26,083 nucleotides of DNA from NCBI GenBank assembly GCA_919902475.1, contig CAKKRA010000101.1, forward strand, positions 1 through 26,083, read 5' to 3'. This DNA comes from Nitrospiria bacterium. GTDB lineage: Bacteria > Nitrospirota > CAKKRA01 > 9FT-COMBO-42-15. Below the pieces are notes generated by a model. It was given only the letters and a program-made list of their open reading frames with translations. It ran no database searches and was not told where the DNA came from. Every line of letters begins with the position of its first letter. The first letter of the stretch is position 1. The position numbers and the translations under genes were made by a program. This document shows, piece after piece, positions 5,280 through 5,602 of the stretch.

Positions 5280-5324
5280 CCACTACTTGTTGTATTTTTT
5301 TTTGCTGCAAACAATATCTTGTGG
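5280..5324. promoter_or_regulatory. Two NrdR-box-like sites
   Basis: CCACTACTTGTTGTAT (5280-5295) and AAACAATATCTTGTGG (5309-5324) versus the consensus acaCwAtATaTwGtgt; 29 bp start-to-start. Confidence 0.45.
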
Positions 5325-5533
5325 ATAAGCAACAGCATTAAGCAAAAATATATCTACATTACAAATTTAAATAGTATCTTTATTTAACCCATTGATAAAA
5401 AAAGAAATTTGTGTGCCTAAAAAATAGGCAATCCGCTAAGCAAGCTGGATTTTGGCTATTACCCAAATAACCAGACATTACTTATCCACAGGTTGTTCAC
5501 ATTTTCTGGGGAAAATTGCATAACTGTTGATAT
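5320..5533. other. DnaA-box cluster with AT-rich tract (oriC-like or DnaA-regulatory locus)
   Basis: Perfect boxes TGTGGATAA (5320-5328) and TTATCCACA (5482-5490); one-mismatch boxes to TTWTNCACA at 5412-5420, 5493-5501 and 5507-5515; two-mismatch boxes at 5515-5523 and 5525-5533; AT-rich tract about 5341-5425. Confidence 0.55.
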
Positions 5534-5602
5534 TACATAGATAATACCATTAGGCAGCAGCAGCATAGCCTGATATCGGAGCAGCGCACAGAATGAGAAA
5601 TA

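Follow-up and report, generated by a model that had tools for sequence, protein, structure and literature searches.

A conserved DnaA-box module with an IHF consensus and candidate DARS-type architecture between yicC and a yhaM-like gene in a Nitrospiria bacterium

The window analysed here is a stretch of 26,083 nucleotides from a Nitrospiria bacterium (GenBank assembly GCA_919902475.1, contig CAKKRA010000101.1, positions 1 to 26,083), that is, contig C101 of a metagenome-assembled genome (MAG) of 2.3 Mb in 433 contigs. In this window yicC and a yhaM-like gene diverge from a gap at 5213-5688 (31% GC, with the yhaM start put at ATG 5689), which is long, as a preliminary description of this DNA had stated, and which carries a cluster of DnaA boxes together with a consensus site for integration host factor (IHF). 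The box cluster is real and conserved, and it is neither an ordinary origin nor an ordinary promoter. From the order and spacing of its sites we suggest, with a rough probability of 0.55, that it is a non-origin docking module for DnaA and IHF, built on the architecture of the DnaA-reactivating sequences (DARS) of Escherichia coli as a lineage-specific variant. The parts of the module, followed by its neighbours, are these:

5280-5545 (about 265 bp), plus strand: conserved non-coding block, the whole module, delimited by BLAST and MAFFT against relatives
5280-5295 and 5309-5324: two 16-mers resembling NrdR boxes or CAC-N8-GTG palindromes, the second overlapping the distal DnaA box
5320-5328, minus strand: distal perfect DnaA box, also perfect in genus g2, with a single mismatch in two relatives of genus g1, that of the window
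5340-5411: AT-rich tract of 18% GC separating the distal box from the palindrome, only partly conserved between genera
5385-5397, minus strand: IHF consensus, an exact match reading WATCAANNNNTTR on the minus strand
5415-5429: palindrome GCCTA-N5-TAGGC, candidate site of a dimeric factor, occurring once in the genome
5430-5481 (52 bp): spacer, constant in length but not in sequence; in this genome 5430-5451 forms a local hairpin
5482-5490, plus strand: DnaA box at position III, a perfect TTATCCACA, aligning with box III of proteobacterial and Nitrospira-like copies
5493-5501, plus strand: DnaA box at position II, TTGTTCACA, 2 bp after box III, one mismatch from TTWTNCACA
5507-5515, minus strand: DnaA box at position I, TGGGGAAAA on the plus strand, inverted, 5 bp after box II
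5525-5533, minus strand: extra weak inverted box, TGTTGATAT on the plus strand, two mismatches, conserved in the family
4334-5212, minus strand: yicC, with Pfam YicC-like N- and C-terminal domains
5238-5267, minus strand: promoter-like site for yicC (TTGACA, 18 nt, TACAAT; 11 of 12 positions), outside the module
5603-5631, plus strand: sigma-70-type promoter for yhaM (TTGACA, 17 nt, TATAAT; 12 of 12 positions), outside the module
5689-6630, plus strand: yhaM-like gene with OB-fold and HD domain, by Pfam
6678-7217: pgsA, directly after yhaM, by Pfam

The two perfect boxes of the preliminary description, at 5320-5328 (minus) and 5482-5490 (plus), and its AT-rich tract were found again. The strict one-mismatch boxes that it also counted were not: none lies inside 5320-5570, and the nearest, at 5125, falls within yicC. 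Boxes with two mismatches are present, seven of them in the gap rather than the two reported, and three of the seven (5412, 5493 and 5507) are one mismatch from the relaxed consensus TTWTNCACA; the last two are boxes II and I of the list. Five boxes had been placed in 5482-5533, where our count is four. Even with these corrections the cluster stands out. None of 2000 shuffles reached two perfect boxes or nine boxes with at most two mismatches, and only 0.03% of the equal-sized windows of the genome hold nine such boxes. Perfect boxes number 27 genome-wide, and about 26 are predicted by our own estimate from base composition, so the unusual feature is the clustering of the boxes. A short CAG/GCA repeat, noted before as part of the cluster, does exist at 5553-5566 but is not conserved in the nearest relatives; as a possible DnaA-trio it was rejected on this ground and because the motif is wrong.

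Other perfect boxes were noticed outside the gap. The third one of the window, at 7132-7140 (minus), falls in the 3′ end of pgsA. Two relatives of the genus have a perfect box at this position and genus g2 has one with a single mismatch; it may reflect chance in the coding sequence or mark another DnaA site. Nowhere in the genome are perfect boxes packed more densely than inside a B12-binding radical SAM gene, where three fall within 228 bp (contig C73:2522-2749), two of them head to head with a 4-bp spacer. This pair and its spacer are unchanged in two relatives of the genus, and the flanks vary.

In its sites the module is well defined. The IHF consensus string has only two matches in the 26-kb window, and the one at 5385-5397 is kept in all six copies of the family; an IHF-beta-type protein is encoded on contig C173 of the same genome. 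The palindrome fits exactly the consensus GnnYAnnnnnTRnnC of the E. coli protein Fis, a string which, like that of IHF, is given for DARS2 in PMC4245941. Boxes II and I, each with two strict mismatches, are separated by TTTTC (5502-5506), and box I has the TGGGGA form that is the rule among Nitrospirota copies.

The whole block 5280-5545 is conserved in the four relatives of the same order that carry it: identity is 85-91% inside the genus and 75% across genera; the adjacent YhaM proteins reach only 74%. The 36 nt over the box triad (about 5482-5517) are identical in five of five orthologous copies from two genera, and box II is invariant in five of the six family copies. Conservation across relatives, which had been named as a check on the cluster, therefore speaks for it: the cluster is kept in both genera of the family. 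Its surroundings differ. In the genus of the window the block lies between yicC and yhaM; in genus g2 it lies between coaBC and yhaM, in the order coaBC > yhaM, and stops 20 nt short of the start codon; in the G001 bin a second contig has it in a gap between a hydrolase and a glutamate synthase gene. Since it is kept in three gene contexts, we regard the block as a unit of its own. The genome of the window has one copy.

The second copy in G001 (C171:1941-2189) is 72% identical. It may be a paralogue, or the contig may come from a second related organism (3% contamination).

If the block is a unit of its own, how far does it extend beyond this family? A pattern made from the palindrome and the perfect box, applied to public genomes and metagenomes, also matched Alphaproteobacteria and a gammaproteobacterium. 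With a relaxed pattern the module was found in 27 of 401 sampled Alphaproteobacteria, where a control pattern gave 0 matches, and in 29 of 201 Nitrospirota, where the control pattern matched once in 201 genomes. Among the Nitrospirota, 20 of the 29 genomes of one Nitrospira-like family carry it, with 2-4 copies per genome. Upstream of uvrC lie 17 of the 28 alphaproteobacterial copies (one alphaproteobacterium has two), and the gammaproteobacterial copy, in a MAG of Acidiferrobacteraceae, lies upstream of priA. Because exact core motifs were searched, these genome counts are lower bounds. The palindrome is present in every retrieved copy of the three groups, with only its AT-rich centre varying; the invariance of its arms is partly an artefact, since the search patterns demanded the palindrome throughout, and for Proteobacteria also a perfect box.

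The copies share one order: IHF consensus, palindrome, fixed spacer, box III, 2-3 bp, box II, 5 bp and inverted box I. Counted from the first base of the palindrome to the last of box II, the distance is 87 nt in the window and 86-88 nt in nearly all proteobacterial copies, whose consensus reads TTnTccACA, 3 bp, TTATCCACA, 5 bp, nGTGGAtAn. The boxes of the window align position for position with those of the proteobacterial and Nitrospira-like copies. The perfect box stands at position II in the Nitrospira-like copies and in all retrieved proteobacterial ones. An earlier idea, that box II of the window was born from a 12-nt insertion, was dropped, as the aligned copies show simple positional homology. 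The IHF consensus accompanies the palindrome in alphaproteobacterial copies too, and in the Nitrospira-like family a CCAC-N8-GTGG palindrome takes its place. The distal box varies between lineages in position and orientation. Paralogous copies of one family lose their similarity immediately past box I, and unrelated genes follow, which indicates that the unit ends at the boxes.

In several alphaproteobacterial copies (L100, L107, L110, L119 and others) the 5-bp spacer between boxes II and I is GANTC, the methylation motif of CcrM, a hint that the head-to-head junction may be methylated in step with the cell cycle.

The nearest known counterpart of this arrangement is the core of DARS, described as three boxes of which I and II are opposite with a 5-bp space, II is the consensus box, and the spacings are highly conserved (PMC6868365). 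In the K-12 genome both DARS1 and DARS2 read box III, 3 bp, a perfect box II (TTATCCACA), 5 bp and inverted box I. The module of the window has such a three-box core, conserved in the family. Its boxes I and II are opposite and 5 bp apart, as in most of the proteobacterial copies and in the Nitrospira-like copies compared, and its tandem boxes III and II lie 2 bp apart, the corresponding distance being 3 bp in E. coli DARS1 and relatives. A datA- or DARS-like control site had been proposed from the outset as one of two readings, and this anatomy supports it: the three boxes are arranged as in the DARS core, an IHF consensus is present, and the module is conserved as a free-standing unit.

With DARS1, which lies in the bioD-uvrB gap, the module shares three boxes (two tandem and one inverted), the 5-bp head-to-head and 2-3-bp tandem distances, and a non-coding position off oriC beside a gene of repair or nucleic-acid metabolism (uvrB there, yhaM here, uvrC in alphaproteobacterial copies). 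The two have no sequence homology beyond the boxes, and the module has its consensus box at position III and a TGGGGA box I. DARS1 reportedly needs no further factors to promote ADP release, whereas the module includes a palindrome and an IHF site at fixed distance. With DARS2, in the rppH/ygdT-mutH gap, it shares the three-box core, an IHF site, a 15-bp site of Fis consensus and a seemingly fixed spacing; the order differs, as the palindrome of the module stands between the IHF site and the core. DARS2 is described as conserved only in beta- and gammaproteobacteria proximal to E. coli (PMC4245941, PMC5742627). No publication linking DARS to Alphaproteobacteria, to sites upstream of uvrC or to these motifs was found in a literature search whose scope did not take in Fujimitsu et al. 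2009, which is said to list candidates in various species.

Several points weigh against the DARS-type interpretation. Box II of the window does not have the full consensus, the perfect box being at III, and the gap between III and II is 2 bp, not 3 as in DARS. The accessory layout is unlike that of DARS2: here the IHF site and the palindrome both flank the core at its box III end, the palindrome being the closer of the two, while E. coli DARS2 has, in a strict consensus scan, a single Fis-consensus match, on the box I side, and in its published model IHF is placed to loop Fis onto the core. The initiator protein differs as well. Gln208 of E. coli DnaA is needed for DARS-dependent ADP release (PMC6868365), and its equivalent is Asn in this genome and in two other Nitrospirota; the two Alphaproteobacteria compared have Phe or Tyr there, and the gammaproteobacterial MAG has Ala. 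Phe239, Lys243 and Leu290 are kept in the same comparison. A small Fis-like gene is not evident in Kordiimonas, one of the carriers. Finally, inverted DnaA boxes by promoters can equally serve transcription control. Because of these differences in layout, boxes and DnaA residue we call the module DARS-type with moderate confidence and do not file it as a proven DARS.

Which protein might bind the palindrome? Fis was tried as the candidate, since the consensus fits, and set aside, as small HTH_8 genes are missing from some carriers. In the genome of the window there is a small HTH_8 frame of 69 aa, uncertain as a Fis orthologue. Given that some carrier genomes show no small Fis gene, the factor is probably other than Fis. 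The palindrome is also conserved far more strictly than a Fis site requires.

In the mechanism that we propose, DnaA would assemble off the origin on the three-box core, made of the tandem boxes 5482-5490 and 5493-5501 and the inverted box 5507-5515, so that protomers on the tandem boxes would face the protomer on the inverted box head to head. The palindrome would bind a putative dimeric protein at a fixed distance upstream of the core, and IHF would bend the DNA at 5385-5397; in this lineage a second perfect box lies 57 bp beyond the IHF site. Such a complex would alter the state or the availability of DnaA and thereby feed back on initiation at the origin beside dnaA. By analogy with E. coli, the effect is most likely ADP release, which would regenerate ATP-DnaA; titration or a datA-like ATP hydrolysis is less likely. 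DnaA at the module may also modulate the yhaM and yicC promoters.

A more far-reaching proposal can be put forward only tentatively: that this is a working DARS-type site whose obligatory partner is not Fis but the protein binding GCCTA-N5-TAGGC about 50 bp off, and that DnaA-reactivating sites are ancient and widespread. If this were true, initiation control by such sites would not be a speciality of the E. coli group. Control of DnaA by non-origin sites (DARS1, DARS2, datA) has been worked out almost only in E. coli. Three distant groups share the same three-box geometry with an IHF site and a nearly invariant palindrome at set distances, which makes the module a testable candidate for such control in nitrifiers, uncultured groundwater Nitrospirota and Alphaproteobacteria, and points to a further protein partner, the palindrome-binding factor.

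The strongest competing explanation is DnaA-dependent control of transcription, in which the boxes, with IHF and the palindrome factor, would be operators of flanking promoters, those of yhaM-pgsA and yicC here and of uvrC or priA in Proteobacteria, and would leave DnaA itself unaffected. It would couple genes of repair and nucleic-acid turnover to replication status, and we hold it to be unlikely. In its favour, the module lies between the divergent promoter-like sites, in genus g2 it comes as close to the yhaM start as described above, and a weak promoter-like sequence of that genus (TTCACA, 17 nt, TATAAC, read from the alignment) overlaps boxes II and I. The position before uvrC or priA in Proteobacteria has a parallel in E. 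coli, where DARS1 lies in the uvrB promoter region and DnaA is reported to regulate uvrB (PMC6015884). However, the 2-4 copies of the Nitrospira-like genomes precede unrelated genes or long non-coding gaps, with the similarity ending at box I, and even within the family of the window the block has three contexts. In genus g1 a separate, perfect promoter is inserted between the module and yhaM, in a segment of about 150 nt that is confined to this genus and absent in genus g2. The strict phasing to a palindrome some 50 bp off would also be needless for a simple operator.

The long yhaM open reading frame from 5593 starts 96 nt too early: its homology to relatives begins at about residue 33 (about 32 codons in); this, together with the perfect promoter at 5603-5631, places the start at ATG 5689.

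A datA-like sink, in which boxes around the IHF site would titrate DnaA or speed ATP hydrolysis and so restrain initiation, appears improbable to us. datA is described as DnaA boxes plus a single IHF site (PMC11724364), and this pattern is indeed seen here: perfect boxes of opposite orientation lie on both sides of the IHF site, at 5320-5328 (minus), 57 bp from 5385-5397, and at 5482-5490 (plus), 84 bp from it. Clusters of DnaA boxes that repress initiation are also reported in Bacillus subtilis and Streptomyces (PMC5742627), and the module shares with these and with datA the character of a non-origin box cluster, here with an IHF site between oppositely oriented boxes. Yet what persists across phyla is not the datA box set but the DARS-type triad with its hallmark 5-bp head-to-head spacing, and the distal box changes position and orientation between lineages.

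The preliminary description had offered, as its other reading, a replication origin in an unusual gene context. We consider it very improbable that chromosomal replication starts at this locus, whether as a whole origin or as half of a split one. As the MAG consists of 433 contigs, whole-genome cumulative skew was not used, and replication direction was read from the codon third-position GC (GC3) skew of each gene and from a closed relative, G591. The GC skew of the window follows gene orientation and has no lasting switch at 5.4 kb. Minus-strand genes have a coding-strand GC3 skew of about 0.33 to the left of the site (n=5) and about 0.26 to the right (n=16), the genome mean being 0.137; the three plus-strand genes of the window have a mean of about 0.05. 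The minus strand is thus leading throughout, so one fork direction crosses the whole window. The caveat already raised, that genes point toward the locus, was confirmed: there is no gene-orientation switch at the site.

The minus strand carries about 80% of the coding length of the window (1-26083), and the genes have a strong coding-strand GC skew (genome-wide mean of GC3 skew, 0.14). In this organism raw GC skew therefore mainly reflects gene orientation, and it can be read as replication skew only after correction.

In B. subtilis the basal unwinding system has DnaA-trios next to boxes 6 and 7. No DnaA-trio run was found in 5213-5688, either by reading the sequence or in the box scan, which agrees with the other caveat of the preliminary description. 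Such a run stands elsewhere, beside dnaA, which lies on contig C40. The gap upstream of dnaA (504-821) combines an AT-rich tract with a DnaA-trio-like run, (TAG)5, at about 549-563. It also has a short GC step, a tandem pair of weak boxes phased by 8 nt and, next to the dnaA start, three closely spaced boxes at 780-810, all imperfect. The layout with a (TAG)4-5 run is conserved in both genera of the family, and the relaxed-box count of this gap, 7, is the genome maximum, a value that several other windows share. The flanks of dnaA are thus not devoid of boxes, as an origin away from dnaA might have led one to expect; by its likeness to the B. subtilis system, the gap on C40 is probably the true oriC.

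Homologues of the module give the same answer. In G591 (closed, 4.14 Mb, same phylum) the skew is negative in all sampled 20-kb stretches from 2.10 to 3.977 Mb and positive in all sampled stretches from 3.981 Mb through the record start to 1.92 Mb; the switch falls in a 4-kb gap that holds dnaA (3,978,073-3,979,386) and is therefore at dnaA. Its copies of the element, at 865,885 and 2,970,668, lie about 1.0 Mb to either side of the switch, and there is no skew change across them. In Kordiimonas sediminis and the Acidiferrobacteraceae MAG the skew is positive on both sides of the element, and in the latter dnaA is 100 kb away on the same contig. An origin would account for some features: no intergenic pair of perfect boxes elsewhere in the genome is as strong as that of the gap, the dnaA flank holds only imperfect ones, and the fragmented assembly leaves the distance between C101 and C40 unset. 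The DnaA boxes, the AT-rich tract and the IHF site are shared with the basal unwinding system of bacterial oriC. However, the module has neither the skew switch nor the trio run and unwinding element by a box pair that mark an oriC, and relatives have several copies of it where an origin would be single. In fragmented genomes, predictors of origins that rely on box density will mis-call such sites as oriC.

The least probable reading of all is that the block is a small structured RNA and its boxes incidental. In its favour, the plus strand at 5400-5545 has a somewhat more stable fold than shuffled sequences (z = -2.5; 3 of 200 shuffles were as good). Against it, Rfam gave no relevant match, either on the gap with permissive thresholds or on 20 proteobacterial loci at gathering thresholds. 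In an RNAalifold analysis of 25 Nitrospirota copies there were 0 compensatory pairs and a covariation term of about 0, and the only paired parts were the invariant palindrome and the inverted repeat of boxes II and I. The spacer keeps its length but not its sequence, no terminator was found at the locus, and RNA-seq of a cultured Nitrospira relative showed no discrete abundant RNA, a test made weak by contigs of flat depth. In these data the element lay within one long flat contig in two runs and was uncovered in two others.

In a Nitrospira-like closed genome (G506), very short contigs with a depth of up to about 10,000 were seen in two RNA-seq runs at L129:900-1240, which is 250-590 nt from the element. 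They fit two places of the stretch, and this suggests a highly expressed repeated RNA.

The two 16-mers at the left edge of the block match the NrdR consensus at 11 of 16 and 13 of 16 positions, start 29 bp apart and are conserved in the family. A typical NrdR operator has two 16-bp boxes, spaced by about 31-32 bp, and precedes genes for ribonucleotide reductase; the matches here are moderate, their spacing is odd, and no nrd gene lies near the module. The genome encodes nrdR, and the scanned stretches upstream of its two ribonucleotide reductase genes contain no NrdR box of at least 12 of 16. Two much better palindromes, CCACAAT...ATGTGG, occur elsewhere in the genome, at C239:392 and C367:1785.

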